Virus record (IMG/VR): IMGVR_UViG_2541047734_000008
Location: 1-45,329 of that record
Strand: one strand, 5' to 3'
From: a virus
Lineage: Duplodnaviria; Heunggongvirae; Uroviricota; Caudoviricetes
Length of the DNA stretch: 45,329 nt
The notes under the pieces are model-generated. The model had not been told where the DNA came from and searched no databases. It was given only the letters and a program-made list of their open reading frames with translations. The position numbers and the translations under genes are program-made. Shown here one piece after another: positions 5,946-29,418 of the stretch. The first letter of the stretch is position 1. Each line of letters opens with the position of its first letter.

Positions 5946-8900
5946 CCCGACGCGATGACTGCATAATTGACACAACCCTGCTGTCGATCAGATCCACCAG
6001 TCCCCTGGCTGAGCGCGCATCTATCTCGCCATTGCTCCCTTGATTCTGAATGCTGATGTGATACACGGGAGAATAAACAAATCCACCGCCACCATTCACA
6101 TTTCCAATGGCCCTGACCCCAAGAGAGCCGTCCGCTGCCCGTGTCAGTGGCATGATTGCTTCAGGCCCGGCCTCGCCCATCAACCCGGCACCTTTCGCAA
6201 AAGCAAAATACGTCGGTGTATCCACAATAGTGTTACTGTAAGCACTCAGATTTGCCGATGTGTAAACACCACCTTTTGCGTTTGCCACTGCACCGGAAAG
6301 CCAGTCGCCGACTGTACCAAGCCATCCTCCGGCACCGGACATGCTTTTGGAAAGTGACTTCAGCCCGTTAACGATGGCAGCGTTCATCAGAATTTTTGAA
6401 ACTTCCTGGAGAATTGAACTCCCCCAGTTTCTCCAGTCCACAACATTTCCGGCCAGTGCATCGGAAATATTTGATACCAGCCCGTCCATCGTGGAAACGA
6501 CAGCATCTGCCGCCTGTGAAGCATAATCGGTGGCACTGTCTGCCCAGTTGGTCAGTCCCTCCTGGAGTCCGGCATTCCAGTTATTACGTAAAGCATCGGC
6601 CTTTGCATAATAATTCTGCTGATCGCTGAGACGCTCTTCCAGATATTTTTTATTCAGTTCTTTCTCCTGTTTCCACAGGGCTTCTTCAATTTCTCCGGCC
6701 TGATACTGTCTCAGCAGCTCGTTATTTTTCTGCTCAAACGCCTGCCGGATACTCCACATTTCCTGGAGTCGTTCACGCATCCGTGAGCCTTCACCATATC
6801 CCAACAACTGCGCTTCGTCAGATGCCCGGGCACTGGCATTACTGTCCGCCAGACTGCTCTCATACGCAGCAAGCTGCTCACGAATCTTTTTCTGGTCGAT
6901 GAGTGCTGCATTCTGCAAAAGCGTTTTTTTCTGCGCTTCTGACAGGGTTGATAATTCGCCCTGACTGACCTGATATTTCATCTTAGCCAGTTCAGTATTC
7001 TGCCCTGCCAGTGCTATTTGTTCTTTTTGCTGTTTAATCAGCCGTTTATAAATATCTTCTGTTTTTTCCGCTTCGGTCTTTTTATGCGCTTTGGGTTTAT
7101 TTGCCTGGTTATTTCGCCAGGCATCCAGTGAGTTATTGATATAATTCTGCCTGGCTGTCTGATACGCCTCTCCCACAAAGCCGAGATCATCCGCAGCATA
7201 ACCCAAGCGGGCACGCTCACGGGCTTCCCCCTTCAGGCGGGACAGAGCCAGTTCGCGCTCGCTGTTATTCAGTGCAGTCTGCTGTTTATCATCCAGGGTT
7301 GCCTGTGGTAGCCGTAACGGTACATTCACCAGCCCCTGTCGCTGCTGAAGTAATTCATTACCGAGCCCGAGAAGGCGATTAAACTCGGTATGCTGCCCAT
7401 TCATGATCAACAGGGACTGATACGCTTTGTTTTGTTCCGCGGCCTGTTGACGGATCAACGCCACCCGTCGCTCCTCCAGCCCGGCAAGCACATCCTGAAT
7501 GGATTGCGCTTTGCCCTGCATTTGTGTGAGACGGGACTGTTCAACTGCCAGTTGATTTGTTGCTTCTGCAAGCCCTTCTGTGACAGTTTTTACCGACGTC
7601 ATGTGGTTAATCATAAAACCGTTATCGGTTGTCCAGCCCGGGTTTGCCAGCACATACTGATAGCCAGCAATTTTTTCCTGTAAGGATTTAATCTTACTTT
7701 TCTGCTCGTCAATTAACCTGTTTTGCTCATCAAGTGCCTGCCGCGTCATTTCCTCATTATCTGACGCTTCAGGAAGCGACATTGCCGACGTTTTCTGGCG
7801 AATTTCGTCGATTGTTGCGGCATACTGGCGTGCAGATTCTCTGGCCTGCTCCTGATTCTGATACATCGTGTACCAGGCCGTCGCCCCCAGCATGACGAGT
7901 CCCGGCACACCACCAACCAACCCCAGCGCACCACTTAACAGACGACTCCCCACTGACGTGACAGTATTCAGCGTTGTCTGTGCCGCTGTTCTGGCCGCAA
8001 TATTACGGGTAAGTGACGCCTGGGCAGCTGTCAGCTTCGCTTCTGCTGCGGCCTGCCTTTCGGTACCGCGAGCAGCAACAACCGCCTGTTGCGCACGATA
8101 AACCGCCGCACGCGCCCTGGCGGTTGCTATCTGTGTCCCCCGAAGTTGCGCTTCAGCAAGAGCCACTTCGTTTCTGGCTGCAGTAATTAATCCGGCAGTT
8201 GCAGATCCAGCAGACGACGCCATATTGCCAAAATATCGGGCTACCCCGACGGCAACCAGTGCGCCAGCTGCAGCAGCCACGGTATCAATATTGTCTGCAA
8301 CACCATTCAACACCCCGGTGAGTGTCTTTGTCACTCCGCTTGCCTCGTTCGCACCACCAACCCAGGCCATAAAGGCGTTTTCAACTTTGGTTGCAGAGGA
8401 TGAAACAGTATCAGGCATTGCTGCATATTCATCACGCAACGCCCCAAGCTGACTAATCAGTGCAGGAACAACCTTATCGGCGGTCAGTTTTCCGTTATCC
8501 GCCATGGCCTTCAGATCCTTACGGGCAACACCCATTCCCGCAGCCAGCGCACGAATAACACGATCGCCGTTCTCATTCACAGAGTTAAATTCTTCACCGC
8601 GCAGCACTCCCTGCGCCAGTGCCTGACTGAACTGCGTGATCACCGAACTGGCTTCTGCTGTACTGGCACCGGATAATTTCAGGCCCGTGGAGATCGCCTC
8701 GGTGACTTTCAGTACCTCCTCAGAACTGTAGCCATACTCCCGCATGGAAGCTGCAGAGCGGGCAAAAAGGCTGGCGTTATCAGAAAACGCCGTTCCCGTT
8801 CTCTGGCTGATTGCCATTAATTCACGTTGTGATACCTGAAAATCATCACTGGACTGTGAAGCCTGCTTCAGACGGGCATTTACTGAATTCCACTCATCGG

Positions 8901-11450: not shown

Positions 11451-11785
11451 ACATTCCCCTTCTGAGAACAGAGTATCTCAAGCCGTGTGGCACGAGCATC
11501 CGGTATCGGCGGACCGTCTATACTCAGAATCGCGCCTTTGAATGCACCAGTCAGCACTTTCAGACATGAAGTTGCTGTTACATCTCGCCGGAATCTCATC
11601 CAGACCCTCACTGTAGCCTGAGCAGTTTCTGCGCCTCCGGATATTCTCTCCCTGCCACTGATCCCCTTAACTTCTGCCCATATGGTTGCCCCCTCCGTCA
11701 TTGTTTCCACAGGGTGCCCTGACGGAGACCGAACGGTGGTGGCATTCAGAATAACCACACGATCACGTAATCTTCCTGCCTGCAT
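11447..11785 (-). CDS. Head closure / head-tail adaptor protein
   Basis: 112 aa; position downstream of the gp6-like connector. Confidence 0.55.
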   Translation of the reverse strand: MQAGRLRDRVVILNATTVRSPSGHPVETMTEGATIWAEVKGISGRERISGGAETAQATVRVWMRFRRDVTATSCLKVLTGAFKGAILSIDGPPIPDARATRLEILCSQKGNV

Positions 11786-11793
11786 GAGTCCTC

Positions 11794-12099
11794 CTATGTT
11801 CCGGGATGAAATCGATACATCCGCAGTCCGGTATAGAAAAAATCAGGCACTGCATCCTGCATTTCCCTGTTCTCGTACCAGTAGCCAACCAGTTGCATAA
11901 GACGCAGTTTTATCAGAGGTGTTATTACAAGCCCGGTCGTATCCTGCTCAGAAACAGTTTCATCGTAAAGCGTCCGGTTTAAAAACTTTTCAGCCTCTTC
12001 CCTGGCAGCAGCCAGATACATCATAAGAAGAGAATTCTCCTGTTCATTGTCATCATCAATCCGGCACTGAACACGAAGCTCTTCCAGAGTGGGCATCAT
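11794..12099 (-). CDS. Head-tail connector protein (gp6-like)
   Basis: 101 aa, MMPTLEELRVQCRIDDDNEQENSLLMMYLAAAREEAE... gp6-type. Confidence 0.6.
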   Translation of the reverse strand: MMPTLEELRVQCRIDDDNEQENSLLMMYLAAAREEAEKFLNRTLYDETVSEQDTTGLVITPLIKLRLMQLVGYWYENREMQDAVPDFFYTGLRMYRFHPGT

Positions 12100-15622: not shown

Positions 15623-15633
15623 AATGACCTCGG

Positions 15634-16370
15634 TTAAAGCGAGCGGATGCCCACGCTGATCAGATGTTCAGACAGATCCAGCTCCGGTTCACCACCATTG
15701 ACCAGCATCCGGCTCATTGCTGTAAACATCGCAACAGGGCCGTCGATTTTGGCTTCCAGCGTGGATTTATTCGGGAAGATATTGTCGTTTTTGTCCGGTT
15801 TTACCGTAACGTTAGACATCATCCAGTTCATGACCGGATGATTGCTGTGATGGAAACGCCCGGCATAGACCAGTGATTCCGTTTCCTTCATGGCCTCTGA
15901 CAGATTGCGAACCGTCTGCGGAACCTCCACCAGCGGTATCCCTTCTTCAGCCAGTGCCAGGCTGAACTGCATCGCGCTCCACGGGTCAAATCCCAGTTCC
16001 CTGAGGTTTTCACCACCAATCCATTCCAGTAAGTCACTTTTTATCTGAGCATGATCGATAACATCACCATCCGTCAGAATCAGCTTATCCATCTCCGCCC
16101 ACTTCCGGTAAAGTTCTGCCTGCTGCCGCGAGCATCGTTCCAGCCGTCCTTCCGGAAGCCAGAATTTAAAATCGGCATGAACATGCCCGTTATCCGTTCG
16201 CCAGAGTTTTGCCGCCGCACAGATATCAATCTTATGAGCAAGGTCAACGCCGACCCACATGGGATACGTTTTCAGCTCATGTCGTGGGGCAATGTATTCG
16301 CACTTCTCCCACTTAATCATGTCCATCCAGGCAGACTCTGCTGTTACCCACACATTCATGTGTTTGGTAA
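15634..16370 (-). pseudogene. Prophage terminase large subunit, C-terminal (nuclease-domain) fragment
   Basis: 241 aa ORF (..NVWVTAESAWMD..VGVDLAHKIDICAA..) aligns to the last ~243 aa of the intact island TerL; in-frame upstream codons ..NILTKH end at a stop inside island DNA; no ATPase domain. Confidence 0.85.
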
Positions 16371-16651
16371 GAATATTTCAAGTTTTTTAAAATCACCTGT
16401 ATATCAATCATTTAACATGAAAAAACAGTCTTTATAAATCATCGAGCAATACACAGCGCAATACACGTATCTGTATTGTTTTAATGCTGATACACACCGT
16501 TTTTTGATACAGTGATTCGACCTACCATCGCGAAGCATTTTTTATTTCTTGTGTGTAACAATCTGACGAGGTGAGCACTCAAAGAGATAAGAGGCAGTAG
16601 AAATTTCGATCCCCCCTGAATGCAATTTTTCGTATATATATACAAAACAGT

Positions 16652-16810
16652 GCGGGTTATGCGGGTTAGCGGGTTATCTTCGCGTGCTAAGTATTTTTTA
16701 CTCTTTAATATCAATACGTTAAAAAACAACGTATCTAAATATCAGCCAGAATGTAACCCGCAAGACATTCAAAATAACCCGCAAACACCACTCAAATAAC
16801 CCGCAAAAAC
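16652..16810. repeat. Repeat cluster near island left end: GCGGGTTA x3 tandem (16652..16677) and ATAACCCGCAA x3 in opposite orientation spaced ~22 bp (16755..16810), flanking an AT-rich core
   Basis: Directly visible 8-11 bp repeats in a ~520 bp noncoding stretch downstream of island terL. Confidence 0.7.
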
Positions 16811-16885
16811 ATCCCTGAAAGTGGGTGCCGATAATACTGAAAATTTATTCCATTAAATGAGCATTATCCTCTCTCATCCATTCCG

Positions 16886-18547
16886 TTACACACCATCAAA
16901 CGTCGCAAGCCGCTCTTTGTGGTTGTCGCTCATATCAAATGCAAATTCTTCATGCTCTGCCTGGAATGTGCCAAACGCCATCAGCGCCGCAACGCTCGGG
17001 TCTATCTTGTTGGATGATTTTTTCTTGTTCGGCTTGATATTGGCGTTCGCGTCACTCTGCATCACAACATTACTCATTGACCAGGCCAGCACCGGATCAC
17101 CACGATGCACAATCACCTTCCGGTTAACAAAAACTTCGAACGATTTCGCCGCCGGACTGAAACGAAGGTACGTTTGCGGGAACGGCTCCACCTCAAATCC
17201 TGCGCCCTGTAGCTGCGTCCTCAGGTGCGTGGCGTTCCATGTATCGAAACCCACCAGCCTGATATTGAAATTCTCTGCATCCGCCATGATGTCATCACGG
17301 ATACGGTCATAATCAATGCAGTCACCCGGTGTTGTGCGTATCCAGCCCGCCTTTACCCACTGGCGATAGATGGCGCGGTTTTTATTGGCGGGGTTCTGTA
17401 GCTGAAATTCCGGCAGATAGTGACGGGAAACCAGCATAATCTTTTTACCGACCGGAAAGGCATAGCACACGCTGGAAATATCGCTGGTTGATGATAAGTC
17501 CAGCCCCGCGTAGCACTCCTGCCCGTATAAATCCGCCTCCGCGAACGTTCCGGCGCACTCCGCCCATGCACCGTTACCCATCCACGGCGTGGCCCCCTGA
17601 CACCAGATATTGAATCGCTTGGTGAGCATTTCCACCCACTGCGACGGAATACCCCGCGCTTTCTGGATGGTTGAGGCCAGTTTTTCACGATCGACGGAAA
17701 CATCGATATTGGGATTCGCCTTTATCCACATCGCCGGATCGTCAACCTCGCTTTCATCATCCAGCTCGTAAATCAGCACGAACATGGATTCGTTCACCTC
17801 TTCACCATCCAGTATCTGGCAGCAATAGTCGTAGTGTTGTTTACAGGCTGAAACAACGTTGCTCCCCGATGTGGTGATGGCAAATAATAACCCCTCCGGA
17901 CGCGCCCCCATTCCCAGTTCAAGCGCGGAATAAACCCCGTTGTCAGGGTGCAGGTGATATTCATCCACAATGGCAAGACTCGGGTTTGTACCTTCAATGG
18001 TTGCCGCTTTTGCTGCCAGTGGCTTTAACAGGCTGTTGGTTTTCGGGTGTATCACCTTGTGTGCCTGAATATTTACCCGCTTTCGCAACGGTCGGGATAA
18101 AAGGCACATCTGACACGCATCATCAAACACGATCCGCGCCTGATCACGACTCACGGCGGCGGTGTAAATATCCTGCTGCCCGTTTTCCATAACCAGAAAC
18201 CAGTTAGCCAGGATAGCGGCGACCGTGGATTTGGCATTTTTTCGCGGCACTTCAATGAATGCGCTGGTGTATTTGCGCCGTCCGGTGGCCTTAACCTTAA
18301 AGCCCAGGATGCACGCAAAGGCGAACTGCTGCCACGGCTCCAGCTCAATGGGGCTACCGCGCATTGCGCCTTTTACGTGCGGACACACCCTGGAAAAGGC
18401 AATAAACCGCTCCACGACCTCCGGATCGAACGTGTAAAGGGGGTTTTCAAGGTCAGAAAAATACCGTTTAACGGCCTGTTTCAGTCGTTTACAGGCCGTA
18501 ATTTTGCCGTTTTTTACGCCTTCTGCGTACTCATGCCAGGCGGTCAA
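16886..18547 (-). CDS. Island terminase large subunit (intact)
   Basis: 553 aa; ATPase N-domain and nuclease C-domain; homologous along its length to the two prophage terL fragments. Confidence 0.9.
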   Translation of the reverse strand: MTAWHEYAEGVKNGKITACKRLKQAVKRYFSDLENPLYTFDPEVVERFIAFSRVCPHVKGAMRGSPIELEPWQQFAFACILGFKVKATGRRKYTSAFIEVPRKNAKSTVAAILANWFLVMENGQQDIYTAAVSRDQARIVFDDACQMCLLSRPLRKRVNIQAHKVIHPKTNSLLKPLAAKAATIEGTNPSLAIVDEYHLHPDNGVYSALELGMGARPEGLLFAITTSGSNVVSACKQHYDYCCQILDGEEVNESMFVLIYELDDESEVDDPAMWIKANPNIDVSVDREKLASTIQKARGIPSQWVEMLTKRFNIWCQGATPWMGNGAWAECAGTFAEADLYGQECYAGLDLSSTSDISSVCYAFPVGKKIMLVSRHYLPEFQLQNPANKNRAIYRQWVKAGWIRTTPGDCIDYDRIRDDIMADAENFNIRLVGFDTWNATHLRTQLQGAGFEVEPFPQTYLRFSPAAKSFEVFVNRKVIVHRGDPVLAWSMSNVVMQSDANANIKPNKKKSSNKIDPSVAALMAFGTFQAEHEEFAFDMSDNHKERLATFDGV

Positions 18548-18890
18548 GCTCGTCCTCTTCCTCTGTTTCCGGTGGATTTCTGCGGCGACTTACCGGGTCA
18601 AAACCCAGCAAAGAAGCCATTTTGATCATTATTCTTTCCGCGTCAGCCTTTGCGCTCAGGGCGGGGTTTCTGCTCTCGCTGCCCTGACTGTTAACAATGC
18701 TGAACCCGCGCGTGGCAAGGTCTTCGACGGCTTTGCGGTATATGGAGTAGTTAACGCAATACAGCTCCAGATTGCTCCAGTCGGCGGGGGTAAGGTCTTC
18801 CCGTCCGGAAAGCTGGCGCGATTTTTCCTTCCACTGCCTGACCGCGATTTCATCCAGGTAAGCGGGGGCTTTTGGTGGTCTTGCCATGTT
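18531..18890 (-). CDS. Island terminase small subunit (P27 family)
   Basis: Start placed at MARPPKAPAYLDE.. (compare prophage TerS MSGPPKTPP..); the ORF track's longer start at 19028 adds non-protein-like residues. Confidence 0.75.
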   Translation of the reverse strand, partial: NMARPPKAPAYLDEIAVRQWKEKSRQLSGREDLTPADWSNLELYCVNYSIYRKAVEDLATRGFSIVNSQGSESRNPALSAKADAERIMIKMASLLGFDPVSRRRNPPETEEEDELDRLA

Positions 18891-19175
18891 CTTTTTTCGC
18901 CCAATTATTTTCAAAAAAAATCCCGTGCACAAAAATTTGAGGAGGCGGTCGGTGTCCGGCAGGGACGGTTTCGTCCTGAAAACCTCCCCCACCCCCTCTG
19001 ACAGCCTCACCAGCGATTGCGAAAACATTCCATGACCTCGCGGTCACGGTCGGTTAATCGCTTCGCTGTGGTGCGTTCTGTGCGCCCTGTCCTGTTAGCT
19101 TTGTGCCCTGTCTCCTGTGTCTTCCATAAGTCACGCTGCCTTATCAGTCCACGTATCAGCCTGTTTTGCTCCTGT

Positions 19176-19616
19176 TCAGTCATCATCGCCATACATCCAG
19201 TCGTTACGATGTGCCGCCCGTTCTTCCTGCTCGCGATACATACCCGCCTTACGGTTCGCTTTCGTGGCTGGATCTTCCCGTGTCGTCTTACGGTTGTGGC
19301 ACGTCTGGCACAATGCCTGGTGGTTCCACTCAGGCCAGAAGAGAACATCACCGCCGCCATTGATGGGAATGATGTGATCCACCACAAGAGCTGGCGTATA
19401 AATCCCCTTAGCCAGACAACGCACGCATAACGGGTTTTTGCTCAGGTACAGGGCGCGGTATTTGTCCCACTGTCGGGAATACCCGCGCGCGCGGCGGTGT
19501 CCCCGTCTGGCATCCTCTGCACGCCATGCAGCCCGCCTGTGCTCTTCACACTTGCCGGACTTCACGCGCTTATTACAGCCCGGCTCAGTGCATCGCCTTA
19601 ATGGTTGCCACGGCAT
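19176..19616 (-). CDS. Island HNH endonuclease
   Basis: 146 aa, Cys-rich N-terminus, ..VDHIIPINGGGDV...NHQALCQTCHNRKT.. HNH motif; located upstream of terS. Confidence 0.8.
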   Translation of the reverse strand: MPWQPLRRCTEPGCNKRVKSGKCEEHRRAAWRAEDARRGHRRARGYSRQWDKYRALYLSKNPLCVRCLAKGIYTPALVVDHIIPINGGGDVLFWPEWNHQALCQTCHNRKTTREDPATKANRKAGMYREQEERAAHRNDWMYGDDD

Positions 19617-19915
19617 CAGTACACCCCCACATCACGATAAACCGACCAGAGCGCAGAAATAGCCATAGGCAGTTCAGACTGCTCCACTGGTGAAACTGCT
19701 TCCCTGTTCTCGTACAGGAAAGCGATGTACATCAGGCAACCAACACGCATTGCCGGGGTAAATTCCAGCCCGTCTTCAAAACGTTTCCCGATATGCTTCT
19801 GGCAGGCTTCCAGCGCCGCATCGGTATACATTTTCAGAAGTTCGCCTTCTCCGGAAAAGTCATCAAGGCGAAGATGTGCCCTGACCTCATCAGGTGTAAT
19901 TTTTTCTTCACTCAT
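19616..19915 (-). CDS. Island head-tail connector protein (gp6-like)
   Basis: Start at MSEEKITPDEVRAHLRLDD..; gp6-like. Confidence 0.6.
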   Translation of the reverse strand: MSEEKITPDEVRAHLRLDDFSGEGELLKMYTDAALEACQKHIGKRFEDGLEFTPAMRVGCLMYIAFLYENREAVSPVEQSELPMAISALWSVYRDVGVY

Positions 19916-21122
19916 CTTTTTCACCTTTAATTTCCACCGTCTGCTTCCATGCCTGGCTGAATTCGTCGCCACCTTCGCGCGGCGGCATCCCCTCACGTTC
20001 GCGGGCTTCGTTCGGATTCATGATCCCGTTCTTAATCCCTTTCTCATACGTGGCGTAACGCTCGGTAGGGGTGGCGCGCAGTAAATCGGCTGAATCAAAC
20101 TCAACCAGATAACGGGTACCAGGTACGGGAGAAGCCACCAGCAAAGCGGCCTTGATTTGCTGTTCGAAGTTCGCCAGCCACGGACGCATTGTCATAGTCA
20201 GAAACGCGCGGCTTGCCTCACTGAAATTGCTGTAGGTGCTGTTGCTGTATTCCTGAAGAAAAATCGGCGACACGTTGAACATACGGGCAATGTCTTCAAT
20301 GGAGAAGCGACGGGAGGCCAGCCATTCCGCATCCTGGTTACTCATCCCCAGTTGCCTGTAATCCATGCCCCCTTCAAGGATTGGCGTTTTTCCGGCATTT
20401 TTCGCCCCCTTATAGCGTTCCAGAGCATCTAATGCCTGTTTACCTTTCACGCCGTCCAGCCATTCGCCTGACGTGATAATCCCTGCCGCCATCATGCCAT
20501 CTTTCATAATGCTGGCTCCGTGGCGCTGTTGAGCAAGGCCAAGCCCCAGCGCCTCACGGCAAATCGTGACAGGGGAGCGCCCCAGAAAGCCATCATCCGA
20601 GGCATAGCGGAGATGCAGAACTTCTTCCTGTAAATACGTGCGTACCGTTCCTGTATAGGGTTCGGTGATGGTATAGCGGTATTTGTGTGCGCCTGTGCGT
20701 TCCGGTACAACACACCCCGGCGCATAAGGATGAAGTGATTTTGGCTGACCGTCCCGCCCCCACTCAATAACCGCATAGGCGTTACCGTTCAGCAGGCAGT
20801 GACGCATCATTGTGCGTTTAAACTGGTAAGGTGTCTGGCACGAATTAGGCTGCTCATTCAGCAGAATATCGACCGGGTGACTGTCCAGCCATTCCCGCGC
20901 CTCCCTGCCCTTGTCATTGCGTACCAGATACAGATAACACGGCATCGTGGCCACCGCCTCAGCGATGACAGAAACCGCGTTCATCACAGCAGGCAATGAT
21001 TCAGCCGTCCCGGCAGAAACATATTCTCCGGATCCGGTATTCGGTACGCCGGACAGCGCCAGAAAATCATCAATGGACAGGTTACGCAGATCGCTTTTTT
21101 TACGACTAAAAGGCCACCACAT
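19908..21122 (-). CDS. Island portal protein
   Basis: About 405 aa from MWWPFSRKKSD..; HK97-type portal, homologous in places to the prophage portal (..RPMILEMGLDW.. versus ..TPILEGGMDY..). Confidence 0.85.
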   Translation of the reverse strand: MWWPFSRKKSDLRNLSIDDFLALSGVPNTGSGEYVSAGTAESLPAVMNAVSVIAEAVATMPCYLYLVRNDKGREAREWLDSHPVDILLNEQPNSCQTPYQFKRTMMRHCLLNGNAYAVIEWGRDGQPKSLHPYAPGCVVPERTGAHKYRYTITEPYTGTVRTYLQEEVLHLRYASDDGFLGRSPVTICREALGLGLAQQRHGASIMKDGMMAAGIITSGEWLDGVKGKQALDALERYKGAKNAGKTPILEGGMDYRQLGMSNQDAEWLASRRFSIEDIARMFNVSPIFLQEYSNSTYSNFSEASRAFLTMTMRPWLANFEQQIKAALLVASPVPGTRYLVEFDSADLLRATPTERYATYEKGIKNGIMNPNEAREREGMPPREGGDEFSQAWKQTVEIKGEKDE

Positions 21123-21123
21123 A

Positions 21124-21684
21124 TCACAACCCCGCCAGTTCAGCCCAGCGATGACGATTATTTCCTGTCGGGCGTAATTCAGGGTGCTGTGCAAACAACG
21201 AACGGTGGGCAATCTCCACGCCGGATTCGGGATAAGCAGGCATCGACGTTATCGTGATTTCACGGAGTTCTGCGGCGGTAACAGTGCGCAGATACGGTTT
21301 TTGCGCGATATTCCACTCTTCGCATAATGCGCGAAAGCCAAAGCTCATTCCTGTAATGTCGCCACGCTCCACCAGCGTAAGCACATCTTTTCCAAGCTGG
21401 GTATCAGGCGGTGTCAGTTCAAAACGTAGCCCGGTGTTGTCCTCAGTCAGTACCAGTGTTCCGGATTTGGTGCGCCCCAGCAGTCGGGTATAGTCATGCT
21501 CATACAGGCAGCGCACATCATTACCCGCCGCCAGATAGTCAGCAAAAGCCCCCGGCGTGAACTGTTCGCGGAATTCGTCCCAGATAATTTCTGAAAGGCT
21601 GTTCCAGCGAACGGCATAACCCACCAGTTTTTTATCGCTGGCGGTCAGTTCAGATGTACGGATTTCAAAATCGGTATTTTGCAT
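21124..21684 (-). CDS. Island prohead protease
   Basis: Start at MQNTDFEIRTSEL.. (Met 73 of track ORF), ..KKLVGYAVRWNSLSE.. Confidence 0.8.
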   Translation of the reverse strand: MQNTDFEIRTSELTASDKKLVGYAVRWNSLSEIIWDEFREQFTPGAFADYLAAGNDVRCLYEHDYTRLLGRTKSGTLVLTEDNTGLRFELTPPDTQLGKDVLTLVERGDITGMSFGFRALCEEWNIAQKPYLRTVTAAELREITITSMPAYPESGVEIAHRSLFAQHPELRPTGNNRHRWAELAGL

Positions 21685-21733
21685 CGGTGTACTCCATAAA
21701 GCTGAAAAAGGAGGCCGAAGCCCCCTTTGCTCA

Positions 21734-22879
21734 TTACTTGCCAGCCTGAATTTCCAGAATCTTGATGGCGTTCGAATCCACCACACCACCGCCCAGATAT
21801 TTCTGGGTATAGATGTTAATGAATCCAGGTTCGCTGAAATCCGGACGGGTACGCGTACCGGTTTCATGGTCAACGATGAAATAACCGCGCTTAAAGTCAC
21901 CTACTGCAATCACACCGTCCGGCATAAATTCCAGATATTCAACCGGAAGCCCCAGCAGAGAATCAGGATCACCAGCCTGTAAACGATCGCGCCAGATGTA
22001 ATCACCAGTGGCATTTTTCAGTTTTTGTGCGGAGGCGGCTGTATTTGAGTTCATCACCCATACAGCTTTTTTGCGGTACTTATTGCGCAGCGTAAATTTC
22101 AGGTCAATCAGCATGTCGGCGCTGAGACTGCCAGTAACTTTTTTCGTCTGGAGCGTACCGAAAGGACGGGTTTTGTCGTTATCCGCAGTGCGCGGAAAAG
22201 CCAGGAAACCTTTAGCTTTTTTCTCGCCATCACCGGAAACCAGATCCGTTTCTTCGGTATCAACGAAAGTGTCGCCAATTTCAGAAGATAACCAGCTCAT
22301 AATATCGACTTCGGAAAAATCGATAATTTCCTGAGTGGTTTTTGGGTAAGCGTAGATCGGATACAGGCGGATACTGACTTCATTCAGTTTTGGGGTTGCC
22401 GTCTGGTTACGTGTAGTGCCTTCTTCACCGTGTTCAACGACCGCGCCCCCGGCAGAAACCAGTTGCTTAAATTCATTGCTGTGAATGGTTTTAACAGTAC
22501 AGATTTTACGCATCACCGATTCATCAGAAAGCTGACGCATAATTTCTCTGTTCAGTTCCGGGATAACCGTATAACCACCATCAGCCGGGACACTGCCGGA
22601 CAGGTTGCGGGTTTCCCCGGTCAGAATGTAAGAGCGCAGTTCGTCTTTGGTTATTTTCTCTTCGACGGAAACACCAGGCTGGTTACGTTCTTCATCAGCC
22701 ACAGATTCGAGGCGGGAAATTTCTGTGTCGAGGGAATCGGCTTTTGCACGCAGTTCATCAAACTGTTTGCCCTCGTCATCGTTCAGGCTGCGGTTTTCAC
22801 TGTCGGCTTTTTCCAGCAGGGATCGCATCTGGTTTTTCAGGGCGGTTTTTTGCTGGCGGAGTTCGATTAATTTCTTCAT
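21734..22879 (-). CDS. Island major capsid protein (HK97 family)
   Basis: 381 aa; coiled-coil delta domain then ..KGFLAFPRTADNDKTRPFGTLQ..GYFIVDHETGTR..; parallels the prophage capsid. Confidence 0.9.
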   Translation of the reverse strand: MKKLIELRQQKTALKNQMRSLLEKADSENRSLNDDEGKQFDELRAKADSLDTEISRLESVADEERNQPGVSVEEKITKDELRSYILTGETRNLSGSVPADGGYTVIPELNREIMRQLSDESVMRKICTVKTIHSNEFKQLVSAGGAVVEHGEEGTTRNQTATPKLNEVSIRLYPIYAYPKTTQEIIDFSEVDIMSWLSSEIGDTFVDTEETDLVSGDGEKKAKGFLAFPRTADNDKTRPFGTLQTKKVTGSLSADMLIDLKFTLRNKYRKKAVWVMNSNTAASAQKLKNATGDYIWRDRLQAGDPDSLLGLPVEYLEFMPDGVIAVGDFKRGYFIVDHETGTRTRPDFSEPGFINIYTQKYLGGGVVDSNAIKILEIQAGK

Positions 22880-23152
22880 GAAGGTTTTCTCGTATTGGTT
22901 AAGATTCAGGACGTGAAACCAACACGGAGGGAGCGCCGCCCGACACTCTCGGCATCTCGCAGATCAACCCGGCATCGCGCAGGGGTCAGGCGGCATTGTG
23001 GCGGCTCACGTCTGAGTGCCACACGCCAACATATACATAAAAATCAGTATGTAAACATCAGCCAGAATCACCGAACAACCTGGAACAACCACGAACAAAT
23101 AATTTACAAAACCTGAAAAAAAGACCCGGGAAAAATCCGGGCCTTTATCGCT

Positions 23153-23401
23153 TTATTGTTTCACTGGATCCCGCATTCTGCGTCTTATTTTCCACAGATA
23201 TTCGATCATCGCTTCCACCTGCTCACGGTTGGTTGCGAAAATTTCCCCGGTCAGTGAGCTACGCAGAAAATCATGATGATCCACAACAAACAACGCATCG
23301 GAAGAAAGCAGACGGCGATATTTTTTTGCTGTCGTGGTTTCCAGATCATCAAAACCATGAAACTTTTTATGTTGCTGGACTTCTTCAAATGTCACTGGCA
23401 T
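23153..23401 (-). CDS. Island hypothetical protein
   Basis: 82 aa ORF in operon orientation. Confidence 0.4.
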   Translation of the reverse strand: MPVTFEEVQQHKKFHGFDDLETTTAKKYRRLLSSDALFVVDHHDFLRSSLTGEIFATNREQVEAMIEYLWKIRRRMRDPVKQ

Positions 23402-23934
23402 GTATCCCCCTTTGCTGCCCGGCGCTGGCGCTTGTGCTTCTCATTCAGCGCCATCAGCCGCGTTTCTGCCTCCTGCTGTTCCTGTGGTGTCACTTCCCCA
23501 CATGGCTGGCCTTTCAGGTCGTAGCGTACCCCACCAGCAACCAGGGCGCGGTAATAGCGCGGAGACTGCGCATAAGATGCCAGCGTCGCACGTAATGCCC
23601 CCGGCCCGAATGCCAGCCCCCTGACGGCGAGATCCTGCATCAGGTCGTCGAATATTCCCACCTTAAGCGGCTTCGGTGCTTCCCTGTTGAATAAGTCAGG
23701 CCACATCTCAGTGAGGCGGTTAACGCGCCTGCGGTTTTTGCGCTGGCGTTTGGTCATATGCCGCCACGGTGTCACCCCTGTGGGCTGCCCTTTGCGGCTC
23801 TGCTGTGCGTTCTGATTGCCGGGTATCACTTTATGCGCCGATGTGGTTTTATCCCGCTCTTGCGCCGCCTGCGTCGTTTTCTGCGGCGTGCCGTAAATGC
23901 CTTTCGGTTTTCGGTTAATGGTCAGCTTTGTCAT
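23392..23934 (-). CDS. ProQ/FinO-domain RNA-binding protein (island)
   Basis: 180 aa, basic N-terminus, ..LTEMWPDLFNREAPKPLKVGIFDDLMQDL...RATLASYAQSPRYYRALVAGGVRYDLKGQP.. resembles the FinO/ProQ fold signature. Confidence 0.6.
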   Translation of the reverse strand: MTKLTINRKPKGIYGTPQKTTQAAQERDKTTSAHKVIPGNQNAQQSRKGQPTGVTPWRHMTKRQRKNRRRVNRLTEMWPDLFNREAPKPLKVGIFDDLMQDLAVRGLAFGPGALRATLASYAQSPRYYRALVAGGVRYDLKGQPCGEVTPQEQQEAETRLMALNEKHKRQRRAAKGDTCQ

Positions 23935-23970
23935 GCCTTCCCCTGTAATTACTCTGTTCGCTGTTGTGAA

Positions 23971-24396
23971 TTAAAACGGTATGTTATCCCCGTACAGGTC
24001 ATCGTGCTGGCCTGTCTGTTGTTTTGCCCTGTTCAGTGCGTCAGTAGCTTGGCTCTGCTGGCCTTTTTTGCCGCCCGGTCGCGCCGTTCGCGCACTGATT
24101 ACGCTGTCTGCGATGACCTGCCAGCCCTGCCGCGTTTCGCCGTTCTGGCCTGTCCACTGGCTCACCTGCATGTTACCCGCCACGCTCACCAGTTCGCCTT
24201 TGTGGTGCTTTGCCAGTGCGTCGGCCTGTCTGCCAAACGCCAGGACGGATAACCACATCGTCGCCGTTCCGTCATCTGCCTGGCTGCACGGCAGGGGAAC
24301 CGCCATACTCGCCATCGCCATTTGTGTCCCCTTGCTGGTGGTCTTTAACTGCGGGTCAGCCACCAGCCGCCCGTAAGCCGCTATCTGTGCTGTCAT
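23971..24396 (-). CDS. Single-stranded DNA-binding protein (island)
   Basis: 141 aa OB-fold-like with acidic C-terminal tail ..DDLYGDNIPF. Confidence 0.75.
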   Translation of the reverse strand: MTAQIAAYGRLVADPQLKTTSKGTQMAMASMAVPLPCSQADDGTATMWLSVLAFGRQADALAKHHKGELVSVAGNMQVSQWTGQNGETRQGWQVIADSVISARTARPGGKKGQQSQATDALNRAKQQTGQHDDLYGDNIPF

Positions 24397-24644
24397 GCTG
24401 TCTGCTCTCCGGTTTTAACGTTGATGGTTGTCACCTGTTCCGCTTCGGCAATCTCCCGCTCTGTCAGCGTGGCAAAATTTGCCGCCGCCGTGGTCATGAA
24501 TGCGCTTATCAGTTCGGGATGTGCTTTCGCGTATCCTTCTCCGGCATGGCGGTCTATTGTTCTGATTGCCACCTTTAAGGCATGCTCTGTCATGTCTAAT
24601 GCGCGATATTTTGGCGCTGTCTTATCTCTGGTTTTTCTGGTCAT
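24393..24644 (-). CDS. Island hypothetical protein
   Basis: 83 aa; overlaps ssb start. Confidence 0.4.
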   Translation of the reverse strand: MTRKTRDKTAPKYRALDMTEHALKVAIRTIDRHAGEGYAKAHPELISAFMTTAAANFATLTEREIAEAEQVTTINVKTGEQTA

Positions 24645-24648
24645 TCCT

Positions 24649-24848
24649 CACTGCTCCCCACTTTTACTACCCACTTTTTGAAATTACCCAACGTCTCCCC
24701 ACTTCTTTTTTTTGTGATTCTAACGTGATGTTTTTCAATGTATTTTTTATTCCCCACTTTTTGGGGTATATACAGGTGGGAAAGTGGGGAATCGCGTTTC
24801 AATTTTGTTAAATTCCCCACACTCCCCACTTTTACTACCCACTTTTTA
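24649..24848. repeat. Iteron cluster / candidate island replication origin next to rep
   Basis: TCCCCACTTTTACTACCCACTTTTT at 24649 and again at 24822; additional CCCCACTT copies in both orientations; AT-rich centre. Confidence 0.7.
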
Positions 24849-26261
24849 CAGTGGGCGCACGTCATCACCGTCAATAGCAATAACGCCATCACCTTCCAGC
24901 TTGTACAGCCAGCGCCGGAAGTGTTTCATCTCATACCCCAGCTTTTTCATATCATCGCGCAACAACGGAATTGTGCATTTATCGCCGCGCTGTGTGCGTG
25001 AACGGATACAGCCCCATAGCGCGGCATGATTCTCCGTCTTGTTCCCGGCTTCCTCGATGCGCTCCAGTTCAACAGGTGGGCGCGGCTTATCCACAACCAC
25101 CAGCGACGTGATTAACTCCCCGTCAGTGTCGGTAAAAAGCTCTACCACGCGTAAATCATATGCAGCCTCTTTCAGTTCCTCCGCGTCCTTCATTTTGGTA
25201 CAGGAGATAACCAGGGCTTCACTGTCCGCACCTTCACGGCGAATACGGTATTCAGCGTCCAGAGATGCACGGAATGCACTGGAACCACGCGCTCCCTTTG
25301 TTTCATCCTTGCCGGAATGGTGAACCACCAGCACCGTGGCCCCTGTGCGTCGTTTCAGTTCGTCACATCCACGGATAAACGCCCCCATATCCCGCGCGTC
25401 ATTTTCATCATTACCGCCAAAACACCGCGCCAGCGTATCCAGAATAATCATGCGTACCGGTTTACCCGTTTCCCTTTCAACCTGGCGGGAAGCGATGACC
25501 ATTTCATCGACATCAAGCGGGACTGCCGGAAAAATCGGGCGGTTTACCAGGTACAGATTTTCCACCCGTTTATCATTAACGATTTCCCATGCCTTGATAC
25601 GGCGGGGGACACCAATGCCACCTTCACCGACAACATACATCACCGAACCATGCGCCACCCTGCGGCCTCCCCAGTGGCGACCCGTGGCAACATGACACGC
25701 CCAGGAACACGCGAGGAACGATTTATAGGAACCGCTCGCGCCGTATGTGCTGCACAATGAATTAGCCGGAATCACGCCCTTAACGACATAATCAAGCTGT
25801 GTGTCGTATCCTGCAGATCCAATACTCATTGGTAGCGTGGTTTTTCGCTGGCTGTATTGCTCGTCAGTAAGTATTTCCCCGCGCTCTGCCTGTTCGCGGA
25901 TCCGTTGCAGGTAGTCGTGCCAGTTCTCCAGCTTCTGGTTGTGCATTCCCTCAGGGTAATAATTCGCATCCCGTACACCTGCCGCCGCCAGCTTTTGCCC
26001 GATAGCATTAATATTTGACGGCTTGATGTGGCCTGCCTTGTACAGCCGGACACAATAGCGACCATCGTCGATAATTTTCAGGTCTGCCAGTTCGTCAAGC
26101 TGGCTGTCTCCAAGCCATACAGGCGGAACATTGTCGCCAGCAAGTCGCCCGTCCTGCTCCTGCCATTGTTTCGCGTGCGCCCAGGCATCACTACCCGCAA
26201 AAATAATGACTTCGGTCATTTTGTCGTGCGGCTGTTTTTTTAAGTTCGGTGCCAGTTTCAT
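24846..26261 (-). CDS. Island replication initiator: primase/helicase-type Rep (RecA-like AAA ATPase)
   Basis: 471 aa; Walker A-like GASGSYKSF, Walker B MIILDTL; sits beside iterons as PICI pri-rep genes do. Confidence 0.7.
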   Translation of the reverse strand: MKLAPNLKKQPHDKMTEVIIFAGSDAWAHAKQWQEQDGRLAGDNVPPVWLGDSQLDELADLKIIDDGRYCVRLYKAGHIKPSNINAIGQKLAAAGVRDANYYPEGMHNQKLENWHDYLQRIREQAERGEILTDEQYSQRKTTLPMSIGSAGYDTQLDYVVKGVIPANSLCSTYGASGSYKSFLACSWACHVATGRHWGGRRVAHGSVMYVVGEGGIGVPRRIKAWEIVNDKRVENLYLVNRPIFPAVPLDVDEMVIASRQVERETGKPVRMIILDTLARCFGGNDENDARDMGAFIRGCDELKRRTGATVLVVHHSGKDETKGARGSSAFRASLDAEYRIRREGADSEALVISCTKMKDAEELKEAAYDLRVVELFTDTDGELITSLVVVDKPRPPVELERIEEAGNKTENHAALWGCIRSRTQRGDKCTIPLLRDDMKKLGYEMKHFRRWLYKLEGDGVIAIDGDDVRPL

Positions 26262-26557
26262 TTTTTCCCCCTGAATCCGTTAAGCATTTTTCTTATGGCC
26301 TGAATATTTGCCCGTGCCTTCTCTTTGCTGGTGGGCTGATTGCGCGGCGCGGTCTGTACCAGGGAAAAATCACGCCGGAACTGATAAACAGGCATCACAC
26401 AGTCATAGCCGTACCCATCACGGCGGTAAATAACGCACCGTCCCGCCACGCTTTTAATCGTTACCGTGCCGCCATAGTTATCCCGGAAAATATCGCCGGG
26501 GCGGATTTCAGGCCGAACGGAGCCGCTGGCAGTAAAGCCAGAATTTTTCTGTTTCAT
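26258..26557 (-). CDS. Island hypothetical protein
   Basis: 99 aa ORF, operon context. Confidence 0.4.
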   Translation of the reverse strand: MKQKNSGFTASGSVRPEIRPGDIFRDNYGGTVTIKSVAGRCVIYRRDGYGYDCVMPVYQFRRDFSLVQTAPRNQPTSKEKARANIQAIRKMLNGFRGKK

Positions 26558-26562
26558 GGTTT

Positions 26563-26772
26563 TTATTCCTCTGCGCGGGCCTTGTTGTGTATTTCCATAA
26601 CCGCGTTTAATTCATCAATAACCGGGGTTAACAGAGTGCTGAAAGCAGAAAATAAATCCCCCCCCTGTTCGGCATGAACTTCGGTTAATTTAATTAATAC
26701 TGCTTTCATTTCCAGTGCCCGGTTTAATGCATTCTCAGAATGAATAAGAACATCGAAAGGGATTTTATCCAT
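26563..26772 (-). CDS. Island hypothetical protein
   Basis: 69 aa ORF. Confidence 0.35.
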   Translation of the reverse strand: MDKIPFDVLIHSENALNRALEMKAVLIKLTEVHAEQGGDLFSAFSTLLTPVIDELNAVMEIHNKARAEE

Positions 26773-27025
26773 GGCTTACATCCTCCGTGAATTTTCTTCT
26801 GTACCGTGCCTCTGCCACATATTCCGCATAGTCCGACGCAATATTGAGAATATCGCTACCCGTTCCTGAATGTTCGGCGGTTTCCAGTAAAAAACTTGCA
26901 GCTTTTACCATGTCAGCAACACATAACAGCGCAATATCTGTATCTTCCGGTGCGCCATCAAATTCCTGTTTCAGGGCATTAAAACGATCATCACGCATAA
27001 CCCCCCCCATTTTCACAATCAGCAA
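26765..27025 (-). CDS. Island hypothetical protein
   Basis: 86 aa ORF. Confidence 0.35.
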   Translation of the reverse strand: MLIVKMGGVMRDDRFNALKQEFDGAPEDTDIALLCVADMVKAASFLLETAEHSGTGSDILNIASDYAEYVAEARYRRKFTEDVSHG

Positions 27026-27230
27026 TTAGGATGGCTTTAGCCTCATTCAGTGCCATATCAGCGGTAAGCTGTGCGTAGGCCAGCGAATGGGGGATTATTT
27101 CCCCTGTATATTCCGTCTCTCTGGTAATGTGTTTTTCTGCGGTTGCTGCCGTGCATGAAATATCAATCAGCGCGTGCATCAGCGTTTTGATGGCTTCGGC
27201 GGCTGCGTCCGGACGGGTGTTATTGCACAT
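26991..27230 (-). CDS. Island hypothetical protein
   Basis: 79 aa ORF. Confidence 0.35.
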   Translation of the reverse strand: MCNNTRPDAAAEAIKTLMHALIDISCTAATAEKHITRETEYTGEIIPHSLAYAQLTADMALNEAKAILIADCENGGGYA

Positions 27231-27426
27231 GGCGCACCCCCTGACGAATACGGGCGGCGAATACCATCACACAGCCAGCCGGGGATTGCTGGCGTGCTTC
27301 CTGTTCGCTGGTGGCCTCAATGGTAATCACGCGCGGTTGTGCCGTGCTCAGGGCGATAAAACGCCAGATATATTTATTCAGGTTGTGCGAGTCCCGCCCT
27401 TGCGGGTGTGTGGTATGATTTCTCAT
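27220..27426 (-). CDS. Island small protein, first gene of leftward operon
   Basis: 68 aa from MRNHTTHPQGRDSHNLNKYIWRFIALSTAQP..; GAGG RBS; the track's 358 aa extension upstream is not protein-like. Confidence 0.45.
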   Translation of the reverse strand: MRNHTTHPQGRDSHNLNKYIWRFIALSTAQPRVITIEATSEQEARQQSPAGCVMVFAARIRQGVRHVQ

Positions 27427-27502
27427 AGCTACCTCGATACTCTTGCTATCGTTGGTGGTTAGACGCCCTGCATGTGTTGCGAGCACTGCGGGGCGTTGCT
27501 TA

Positions 27503-27603
27503 ATTTGAGTGACAAAACTCAAACTGTGCGCACAGATTAAAATCATGTGTGCGCACATGTCAATACTTAACATCTCATTTTTTTTGCTGTATTGTGTGCG
27601 CCC
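27503..27603. promoter_or_regulatory. Divergent regulatory region with palindromic operators TGTGCGCACA
   Basis: TGTGCGCACA at 27525..27534 and 27549..27558 (within CATGTGTGCGCACATG), half-site GTGTGCGC at about 27593; lies between divergent gene starts 27426 and 27632. Confidence 0.55.
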
Positions 27604-27631
27604 ATAAAGTCCATTTAAGTGAGGTGCATCA

Positions 27632-27829
27632 ATGTCTAGCGGTAACACAAACAACAAATCAGCAAAGAAAAATATTCGATTCCCACATGAGCTTATAGAT
27701 GGGATTGATGCCAGCGTTGAACAAGAAAAATTAACTAATCCTAGTGCTAATTTTTCCGCATGGGTCTTAGATGCCTGTGGACGCAAATTAAAATATGAAC
27801 AGCGCCGGAAGGCCAAAGAATCAGAATAA
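27632..27829 (+). CDS. Small ribbon-helix-helix (Arc/MetJ-like) DNA-binding protein, candidate island regulator
   Basis: 65 aa; ..KKNIRFPHELIDGIDASVE..NFSAWVLDACGRKL.. beta-strand plus two helices pattern. Confidence 0.5.
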   Translation: MSSGNTNNKSAKKNIRFPHELIDGIDASVEQEKLTNPSANFSAWVLDACGRKLKYEQRRKAKESE

Positions 27830-27871
27830 TCACTATCAGCGCCGTGGTGTGAGTAACTACGGCGCATTGCT

Positions 27872-28060
27872 ATGCAGGACAACACAATGACCGATAAAGA
27901 ATTGACCAAAACATTATCACCGACACGGAAAAGACGGCGCAGAAAGATAGAGCATGAATCAGAAAGATTCGCACCTTGTTCGTTTGCTCTTGAGAAATTC
28001 CTTAAAGAGCGCAGGAAAAAGCTCTCGTTGCAAACCCTGGAACGAACCAAATCTGACTGA
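27872..28060 (+). CDS. Island hypothetical basic protein
   Basis: 62 aa ORF downstream of the RHH gene. Confidence 0.35.
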   Translation: MQDNTMTDKELTKTLSPTRKRRRRKIEHESERFAPCSFALEKFLKERRKKLSLQTLERTKSD

Positions 28061-28126
28061 TCACATTGCCCACCAGCCGCAAATGTGGCATTGTTGGTGA
28101 TGCTTTTGTTTTCCCTTGTTCCCACT

Positions 28127-28155
28127 GGCGACCCTTTTGCGGTCGCCTTTGTTTT
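28127..28155 (+). terminator. Intrinsic terminator
   Basis: GGCGACC-CTTTTGC-GGTCGCC followed by TTTGTTTT. Confidence 0.6.
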
Positions 28156-28251
28156 GCCTGTTATCCGGCAATAGTGGCGCTTCGTCACCTGTCTGATATA
28201 ATTCCACAGCTTATATTCATTTTTTGCGCAGTAGGTTAATTGTTCGCAAGG

Positions 28252-28282
28252 GCGCTCCGGCAACGGGGCGCTTTTTGTTTTT
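28252..28282 (+). terminator. Intrinsic terminator (GNRA-loop hairpin)
   Basis: GCGCTCCG-GCAA-CGGGGCGC followed by TTTTTGTTTTT. Confidence 0.6.
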
Positions 28283-28440
28283 ACCCACCAGCACAATAAA
28301 AATCTTCATTTTCCATTTTTGTAAAATTTCATGCTTTCCGGACGACTGGTCATATGTCATTTTTTAGCAGAAGATTTTGCCTTGCTGGTGGGTAGCTTCC
28401 CGGTCAACACGATGTACCGTATAATCAACACCGCGTGTGG

Positions 28441-29019: not shown

Positions 29020-29076
29020 TGCTTTTTACCTCACATACAAAAAACCCCGCATTGCGTGGTGCGGGGTTGTCGGTAA

Positions 29077-29355: not shown

Positions 29356-29418
29356 AAAAATATCACCTATAAAAAAACCCGCCAAAAGACGGGTTGATTA
29401 TATCTCATTTAATTTAGC

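Follow-up and report, generated by a model that had tools for sequence, protein, structure and literature searches.

Replication origins of the PICI/SaPI type are defined by opposed sets of short iterons on either side of an AT-rich stretch (PMC6092414, PMC9371898), a definition that has been functionally tested for EcCICFT073 (Fillol-Salom et al. 2018, PMC6092414). In the SaPI origins (Ubeda et al., via PMC9371898), 6-12 short iterons, at least two on each side of an AT-rich centre, are arranged in opposition and are read by the C-terminal winged-helix domain of a self-loading helicase (PMC9371898). The locus described below shares with them the opposed iteron sets, and initiators of the DUF927/HTH_56 (Cch-like) kind found in its relatives belong with the SaPI-type Reps; SaPI iterons differ in being only 5-6 bp long and in always lying directly after rep. 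To our knowledge, split or orphan origin copies are undescribed in SaPIs, and PICI origins have likewise been described as a single iteron field directly after rep.

The nearest precedent for a split origin is provided by the satellite P4, whose record (NC_001609) annotates an 8-bp "ori type 1 repeat" that is shared by crr, which directly follows the alpha gene, and by ori, at a distance of 4.7 kb. The roles of the P4 alpha protein were reportedly described by Flensburg and Calendar in 1987 and by Ziegelin et al. in 1993. P4 resembles the sister islands UMNF18 and L160 described below in being a satellite, in carrying an 8-bp iteron in two clusters kilobases apart, and in the presence of tandem pairs at 9-bp spacing together with inverted copies.

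Lambda cosB, which has the order R3-I1-R2-R1, likewise combines an IHF site with short repeats of either orientation and adjoins a cos-like cleavage region, and such a likeness extends to cos1 of EcCICFT073, whose cosB is recognised by Rpp-TerS (PMC6739421). Finally, satellites embedded in their helpers have been reported (bioRxiv 10.1101/2022.07.18.500453). The parts of that preprint used here describe islands co-oriented with a prophage late gene (terL, the cognate of lambda A) and a doubled motif in the attP region, both of which recur in our locus; those parts differ from it in dealing with integration and gene zones, in placing ori "downstream of pri", and in describing no distal iteron module.

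The island and the repeats after its terL gene

The stretch analysed here (the window, 45,329 nucleotides) is a prophage of E. coli that has a head module of the HK97 type and a terL gene split by a 14.6-kb capsid-forming PICI (cf-PICI) at about 16371-31011. The prophage terL was found uninterrupted in about 900 genomes. All island genes discussed here lie on the minus strand and are arranged in the order int, regulators, BRO, rep, SSB, major capsid, protease, portal, connector, HNH, TerS (P27 family), and TerL. The island is a capsid-forming PICI of the EcCIEDL933 kind, embedded in a late gene of its helper (Table 1).

Table 1. Positions in the window of the features discussed in the text.
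Feature	Position	Strand	Basis or remark
Island/prophage junction, core TTGGTAA	16364..16370; partner 31012-31018	.	Base-by-base comparison with an uninterrupted prophage terL (L002)
Doubled motif GCAATACACAGCGCAATACAC, probable integrase arm-type site	16446..16466	+	Present in both att arms
cos-B, diverged second phiP27/HK97-type cos-like site beside the TA run	16540..16625 (10-nt cos equivalent ~16568-16577)	-	Comparison with phiP27
GTATATATATAC run beside the tandem triple	16632..16645	.	Conserved end element of origin module 2; possible unwinding/priming site
Three tandem GCGGGTTA iterons, spacing 9 and 8	16652..16676	+	Motif search
AT-rich spacer, presumed bend and melting region	16677..16753	.	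Composition, 70% A+T
IHF consensus TATCAATACGTTA (TATCAAnnnnTTR) in the spacer	16709-16721	.	Consensus match
Three GCGGGTTA iterons at two-turn spacing (21 and 22 bp)	16754..16804	-	Correspond to the spaced copies (2-3) of module 2 in EcCIEDL933 and L042
Island terL (TerL_ATPase and TerL_nuclease)	16886..18547	-	Domain matches; PGAP annotation of the identical UMNF18 locus
cos-A in the HNH-terS gap, probably the cos cognate to the island terminase	18895..19000 (10-nt cos equivalent ~18942-18951)	-	Homology to the phiP27 cos
Rep-adjacent iteron field, AAGTGGGG/CCCCACTT-type repeats at 24655-24840, directly 3' of rep	24646..24845	-	Repeat search
Island rep, RepA-helicase type (AAA_25), not the DUF927 type paired with GCGGGTTA	24846..26261	-	Domain match
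Partner copy GCAATACACAGTGCAATACAC of the doubled motif, beside int	30863-30883	.	Probable integrase arm-type site

The last non-coding stretch of the island, between the terL stop (16886) and the attachment junction, forms most of a gene-free gap that runs from that stop to the next ORF start (16360-16885, of which 16371-16885 belong to the island). A search of a phage database with the gap sequence returned one short unannotated match only. An earlier note, made from the letters of the window, had reported three tandem and three inverted GCGGGTTA units there, and a motif search of the window recovered this layout, with plus-strand copies starting at 16652, 16661 and 16669 and minus-strand copies starting at 16754, 16775 and 16797. 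Two details needed correction, as the first inverted unit is GTAACCCGCAA rather than ATAACCCGCAA, and the inverted units are spaced by 21 and 22 bp instead of 21-23 bp. The window contains 10 copies of GCGGGTTA, six of them within 16652-16804, compared to 1.26 +/- 1.02 over the entire window in shuffled sequences, none of which (0 of 100) reached 10. Between the two sets lies a 77-bp spacer with 70% A+T (49% for the whole window), so that the locus has the two opposed sets of short iterons around an AT-rich region by which PICI/SaPI origins are recognised. Its position is not the one expected from that definition, since it lies 70-235 bp beyond the stop of the island terL and about 8 kb from rep, and not immediately 3' of the initiator gene.

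The pattern of conservation was analyzed in homologous arrays from other genomes. Among 30 distinct distal arrays, 4 of 48 motif columns were variable compared to 55 of 117 non-motif columns (Fisher test; p = 8e-7), showing that the 8-mers, and not the spacers between them, are the conserved part. In a set of 40 distinct arrays the IHF-type sequence WATCAANNNNTTR was retained in 35, with variation at its NNNN positions, and the length of the AT-rich spacer was constant within one base (72-74 as measured in these arrays). The TATATATA run differs among the E. coli copies in its number of TA units. Such conservation shows selection on the array family as a whole, from which continued use of the copy in the window does not follow.

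Homology to PICI origins and exchange of the rep cassette

The array region matches 360 of 5426 E. coli genomes. In EDL933 the match falls inside EcCIEDL933 (L003), where positions 16001-16154 are 80% identical to window positions 16633-16786 over 154 bp, directly 3' of a DUF927 rep gene. The segment makes up one end of an uninterrupted field that contains 11 exact GCGGGTTA copies together with the degenerate TTGGGTTA, reaches the rep stop codon, and thus occupies the canonical position of a PICI origin. The window array also aligns with 10 distinct copies from IMG/VR that are contiguous with rep in the same way. The array is therefore homologous to an origin region directly 3' of rep, sharing with the E. 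coli PICI origins the 8-mer, the opposed iterons around an AT-rich region, the tandem triple, and the TA run; it differs from EcCIEDL933 in that the latter has a field in one piece beside a DUF927 rep, whereas the window has only half of such a field, far from a rep of another type.

From other genera, 80 loci were fetched by means of the island TerL, and in many of them an iteron field begins no more than about 30-45 bp from the rep stop. Read in the orientation of the genes, these fields consist of two modules. In module 1, two or three tandem repeats (9/8) are followed by about 53 AT-rich bp and by inverted copies at spacings near 11, 21, and 21; module 2 comprises 2-3 copies at 21-22 bp, an AT-rich spacer of 53-93 bp, two or three tandem repeats (8/9), and finally a TATATATA run. 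The window sequence at 16632-16804 is an exact module 2, with three copies at 22/21 bp, a start-to-start gap of 85 bp, a triple at 8/9, and then gttttgtatatatatacgaaaa. The 8-mer that fills this layout differs between hosts, being GCGGGTTA in E. coli, GTGGGTTA in Winslowiella (L042), GTCGGGTA in Serratia (L050), ACCGACAA (L044) and GAGACAAC (L026) in Xenorhabdus, and GAACCAAC in Rahnella (L015). Tandem triples with 8/9 spacing made of the respective 8-mers close the fields of L042 and L026 at the matching position, and triples are also present at the rep-proximal end of the field in L050 and L044. The TATATATA run follows the tandem repeats at the corresponding place in the Winslowiella, Serratia, and Xenorhabdus islands despite their different iterons. 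As the TerS proteins of islands with different 8-mers are 67-85% identical to that of the window while the 8-mer changes with the Rep, the motif follows the Rep and not the terminase. Six 8-mers in one constant two-module layout thus co-vary with the initiator, as do the iterons of the distal module in the island L160 described below. The suggestion of the earlier note that the arrays might be origin iterons, or a second origin, is supported by this homology, by the layout shared with the rep-adjacent origins of EcCIEDL933 and of other genera, and by the co-variation of the 8-mer with the Rep.

The sister island UMNF18 (L001) encodes a DUF927 Rep and carries six GCGGGTTA copies beside rep (module 1) and six after terL (module 2), the latter identical to those of the window. 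The gap and the TerL and Int proteins are also identical between the two islands, and the shared island backbone is 94-97% identical overall. Nine more islands with a DUF927 Rep have GCGGGTTA at both sites (L005, L006, L104, L109, L113, L115, L116, L133, and L141), a group that includes cf-PICIs located in the clpS region as well as one inserted into another prophage's terL. In this lineage module 1 remains by rep, and module 2 has been shifted into the interval that separates terL from the att site at the opposite end of the island, next to a cos-like site of the helper type. In L160 the TA run and the cos-B flank of the distal module are unchanged, and its iterons are of the TGGGACA type, like the TGGGACAAG repeats beside its own rep. 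In Rosenbergiella (L010) the AAGTGCGG field beside rep recurs as an inverted copy directly after terL. L160 and Rosenbergiella are two independent cases in which the distal copy tracks the Rep.

One iteron in two clusters kilobases apart, as in P4, is thus found in UMNF18, L005, L006, and L160, whereas in the window this pairing is broken, with GCGGGTTA in the distal cluster and AAGTGGGG beside rep. A likeness to P4 at the level of the initiator is restricted to the D5-type Reps, the only alpha-like ones (L004, L023), and a Klebsiella island with a P4-alpha-like Rep has GGTGAACA, which is the P4 type 1 iteron. The window Rep belongs to AAA_25 and is not homologous to alpha, and BLASTP detected no similarity between the DUF927 Rep and P4 alpha (E = 0.47).

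The separate iteron cluster near rep that the earlier note had mentioned does exist, and it is built from a repeat different from GCGGGTTA. What that note had missed is that the island Rep is of a different type, which leaves the "second origin" without a cognate initiator in the island. In UMNF18 the iterons match the island's own initiator; in the window an AAA_25/RepA-type Rep goes with AAGTGGGG/CCCCACTT repeats, and the RepA-type PICIs L161 and L162 have a matching self-contained rep-adjacent field and no distal array. Window positions 23971-26567 (SSB, ori, rep, and DUF4222) are 98% identical to the PICI located at tRNA-Pro in the pig ETEC strain ETEC1734, and the sequences flanking them match the UMNF18 island, so the replication cassette has evidently been exchanged by recombination. 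This swap of rep and ori left the GCGGGTTA module without its initiator, as a heterologous half-origin. The window is not alone in this respect. Among 15 islands with sequence for both ends, 5 have a distal GCGGGTTA array that is intact but mismatched, and the Reps of these five are of at least three types (that of the window; that of L004 and L128, whose iterons are GGTAGACA; that of L130 and L135, whose iterons are CTGTTCA).

Based on these comparisons, we consider it probable that the arrays are Rep-binding iterons that constitute module 2 of a bipartite GCGGGTTA/DUF927 PICI origin, displaced to the region after terL and orphaned by a swap of rep. In islands with a matching initiator, we infer binding of the Rep to the two iteron sets by way of its C-terminal HTH domain, in line with a weak C-terminal match of the DUF927 Rep to HTH_56 (Cch HTH) that is consistent with iteron reading. 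IHF would bend the spacer of fixed length, the AT-rich/TA region would melt, and the distant modules might be bridged by the Rep in a manner comparable to ori and crr of phage P4. In the window, recombination has put a RepA-helicase cassette with a complete AAGTGGGG origin of its own in place of the SSB-ori-rep cassette, and the GCGGGTTA half-origin is most probably an inactive remnant of this exchange; to fire, it would need a GCGGGTTA-type Rep supplied by another resident island.

A split origin is a variant of known origin biology and not a new kind of element, and for the window itself it mainly brings clarification and no surprise. Nevertheless, this locus and its relatives show a split field where a single one has been described; the arrangement occurs in capsid-forming as well as classical PICIs of a common E. 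coli lineage, with one half at the far end of the island by a cos-like site, and Rosenbergiella has independently placed an inverted duplicate of the whole field after terL. This split and often mismatched architecture appears to be undescribed for Gram-negative PICIs in the literature examined. With a mismatched distal half-origin in about a third of the sampled islands, rep-ori cassettes recombine freely, which is relevant for mapping satellite replicons, for incompatibility and cross-talk, and for the engineering of PICI-based delivery vectors, where the required cis elements need to be known.

The possibility that the distal module does more than persist deserves consideration. The intact arrays of the mismatched islands could reflect a role independent of the Rep instead of a leftover; as the sequences are closely related, persistence alone cannot separate function from recent origin. 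In a version that we regard as unlikely, the distal module would be a functional second Rep-binding locus, similar to crr of P4, next to a helper-type cos, required in cis or coupling replication to packaging where the Rep matches, and allowing the Rep of a co-resident PICI to replicate the mismatched islands. If this were true, one satellite would be parasitising the initiator of another. A related and slightly less probable reading gives the array an active part in this very island, where it would serve as a functional second origin, as an element of the crr or copy-control kind, as a sink for Rep, or as the means by which co-resident GCGGGTTA-type Reps replicate the island in trans. Both the integrity of the six motifs in the window and in the four other mismatched islands and the P4-style two-site arrangement of the sister islands speak for a working element, as does the fact that E. 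coli strains often harbor several PICIs, ETEC1734 for instance having a RepA-type PICI at tRNA-Pro. The N-terminal segment of about 130 residues that is common to all Rep types is a further argument on this side, although across genera the iterons track the variable part of the Rep and not this shared N-terminus. In addition, the RepA-type PICIs L161 and L162 and the D5-type cf-PICI L009 have no GCGGGTTA array, indicating that Reps of these types need none, and the 98-99.8% identity of the window rep cassette to that of another PICI argues for a recent swap. Were the array nevertheless a working origin, a possible route would be the action of the island's own RepA-type Rep through the shared N-terminal part. 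The reading as an orphaned module 2 remains the one that we prefer.

cos-like sites of the island

The record of phiP27 (AJ298298) annotates a 10-nt cos-site, CGCCCGCCCC, between the HNH and TerS genes, and the HNH-terS gap of the prophage in the window resembles this region. The corresponding gap of the island (~18895-19000) reads GGGGGTGGGGG ... ACCGACCGCCTCCTCAAATTTTT, and its layout GGGGTGGGGG...ACCGNCCGCCNCCTCAAATTTTT is conserved alongside the packaging genes in E. coli (EcCIEDL933), Klebsiella, Winslowiella, and Serratia. On the strength of this homology, the site in the HNH-terS gap (cos-A) is likely the cognate cos of the island. A second phiP27-type site, cos-B, adjoins the arrays just beyond the region that the earlier note had marked; the segment is near-identical to the phiP27 cos region in L004, L133, and L115, and its version in the window is more diverged. 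Judged by sequence comparison, the arrays are not part of cos-B. They have no homology to annotated cos sites, and it is their neighbours, the segment at 16540-16625 and the HNH-terS gap, that resemble the phiP27 cos.

Two further observations were considered and set aside. The sequence GACGGGGCGG beside the arrays of L004 was examined as a lambda-type cosN and turned out, on comparison with phiP27 and with cos1/cos2 of EcCICFT073, to be a P27-type cos seen from the opposite strand. The linear record of vB_KppS-Ant, which starts at terS and ends after HNH, was not accepted as a mapping of the ends because about 85 bp of the cos-like segment are missing from it. In the cf-PICI literature examined, the cos site is unmapped.

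The alternative first proposed for the arrays, that they are TerS recognition elements and part of a cos or pac site from which packaging of the island starts, has some features in its favor, as they lie after terL, directly beside the P27-type cos-like segment, and an IHF consensus with inverted sites on its two sides is reminiscent of lambda cosB (R3-I1-R2; PMC6739421). Elements recognised by a terminase should be conserved with the terS/terL module, which is not what we found. The GCGGGTTA motif is nowhere in the cf-PICIs of other genera that have a 67-85% identical TerS and a 72-83% identical TerL, whereas the cos-like motif of the HNH-terS gap, the position of the phiP27 cos, moves with the packaging module in every genus that was compared. 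The repeats of EcCIEDL933, an island that packages itself, stand beside rep at a distance of about 6 kb from terS, and neither terS nor terL has any of them nearby. In L160 the cos-B flank is unchanged but the iterons differ and match its own Rep, and L161 has a cos-B-like site without arrays. The characterised PICI cosB, that of EcCICFT073 cos1, is also free of such repeats, as is cos2; the repeats of the window differ from the cosB sites of lambda and EcCICFT073 in tracking the Rep and not TerS. The comparison with other islands, which the earlier note had proposed as a check, therefore backs the origin and speaks against the terminase sites, and by this comparison the latter reading is largely refuted; we give it very little weight, and such arrays should not be named cos or pac sites in annotation. 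Some link to packaging is still conceivable, given that the distal copies of the array that were sampled are always accompanied by a cos-B-like segment.

Other sites in the attachment arms

It is slightly less probable still that the arrays are arm-type sites for the island integrase or an AlpA-like excisionase in attR/attL. In favor of this, the non-coding arm of the island that holds them is att-proximal, the island integrase contains an arm-DNA-binding domain, and short tandem or inverted repeats are typical of arm and Xis sites. Sites of this kind should occur in both attP arms and track the integrase, yet the motif search of the window found no GCGGGTTA in the int-proximal arm, the arrays are 280-435 bp from the core, and they occur with different integrases and sites (the clpS region, the terL genes of two prophages, and the rep of EcCIEDL933, whose Int is 42% identical). 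The place of such sites is filled in both arms by a different doubled motif, GCAATACAC, at 75 and 130 bp from the core.

The least credible explanation takes the arrays as operators for another regulator of the island or helper, or as coding for a small protein or a structured RNA: as a single strand the region does fold much better than its shuffles (z = -5.4) and mechanical ORFs overlap the region (16620-16799 on the plus strand, 16481-16729 on the minus strand), but the strong fold is due to the inverted arrangement of the arrays, no Rfam family was found for the array (best E = 0.29, a plant miRNA model), a scan of the array for promoters and terminators gave no signal, and 8-mers conserved among free spacers, with changes in the number of TA units and in poly-C length, are not a coding pattern.

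A single CCCACTTT at 16818, which could have been taken as a link between the arrays and the island's own iterons, is no such link, since islands whose Reps are of other types (L001, L004) have it as well.

The split terL and the att arms

The prophage terL is divided by the island, which leaves its N-terminal 349 codons on one side and its C-terminal nuclease part on the other; an uninterrupted copy of the same gene is found in about 900 E. coli genomes. This arrangement matches the published class of helper-embedded satellites (bioRxiv 10.1101/2022.07.18.500453), for which that preprint mentions a 'doubled DNA sequence motif'. The doubled motif GCAATACACAG[C/T]GCAATACAC, whose distance from the core is 75 bp in one att arm and 130 bp in the other, probably represents integrase arm-type sites, and is possibly the motif to which the preprint refers.

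Positions of features in the island and in related loci (window coordinates unless a locus is named)
Feature	Position	Strand	Remarks
Prophage terL halves	15634-16377; about 30993-32040		interrupted by island
Island/prophage junction cores	16364-16370; 31012-31018		
Doubled motif	16446-16466; 30863-30883		one copy per att arm
cos-like site 1	about 18895-19000	-	HNH-terS gap; kept with packaging module across genera
cos-like site 2	about 16540-16625	-	far end of island
Replication cassette	23971-26567		SSB, small ORF, origin, RepA-type rep, DUF4222
Shared Rep N-terminus	25870-26261; L003 (EDL933) 18090-18489; L004 (sister island, D5-type Rep) 15630-16028		
AAGTGCGG fields (two, inverted relative to each other)	L010 (Rosenbergiella) 3895-4057; 11705-11833		

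Exchange of the replication cassette

The replication cassette shares 98% identity with that of a classical PICI inserted at tRNA-Pro in the pig ETEC strain ETEC1734, and the island outside the cassette matches the sister island of UMNF18. This is a clear case of modules being swapped between satellites by recombination. The N-terminal ~130 residues of Rep (MKLAPN...VIIFAGSDAW), for which no Pfam match was found, are common to three unrelated helicase/initiator types (DUF927+HTH_56, AAA_25 RepA and D5_N/DUF5906/Pox_D5), and it is probable that cassettes are also exchanged by recombination anchored in this common segment.

cos-like sites and terL-distal iterons

Two phiP27/HK97-type cos-like sites are present in the island, the far-end one being almost the same as phiP27 cos in sister islands and diverged in the window. 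Two cos sites have been reported for EcCICFT073 too.

The iteron of the window's distal array, GCGGGTTA, is absent from the terL-distal gap of the prototype EcCIEDL933 (L003, EDL933, 7370-7790); in its place, a ~40-bp unit that includes a ATCAACCAGTTACCGCGCC-like sequence is repeated about six times. The rep-adjacent AAGTGCGG iteron field of Rosenbergiella nectarea (L010) is duplicated and inverted immediately after terL, and the duplicate is an independent case of a terL-distal origin copy. The 16.5-kb 'phage' record LR881103.1 (vB_KppS-Ant) is a Klebsiella capsid-forming PICI. It encodes int, a P4-alpha-like primase, capsid genes, HNH, terS and terL, and its rep gene is followed by eight P4-type iterons (GGTGAACA).

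Other repeats

Three TGTGCGCACA-type palindromes (27526-27603), likely operator sites, occupy the island regulatory gap that separates divergent small genes, and UMNF18 has them as well. Within the prophage ORF 40770-41870, nine CGTGACA repeats form two clusters (41430-41475 and 41698-41745). The origin iterons of lambda lie inside the O gene, an organization that this ORF with its internal clusters recalls.
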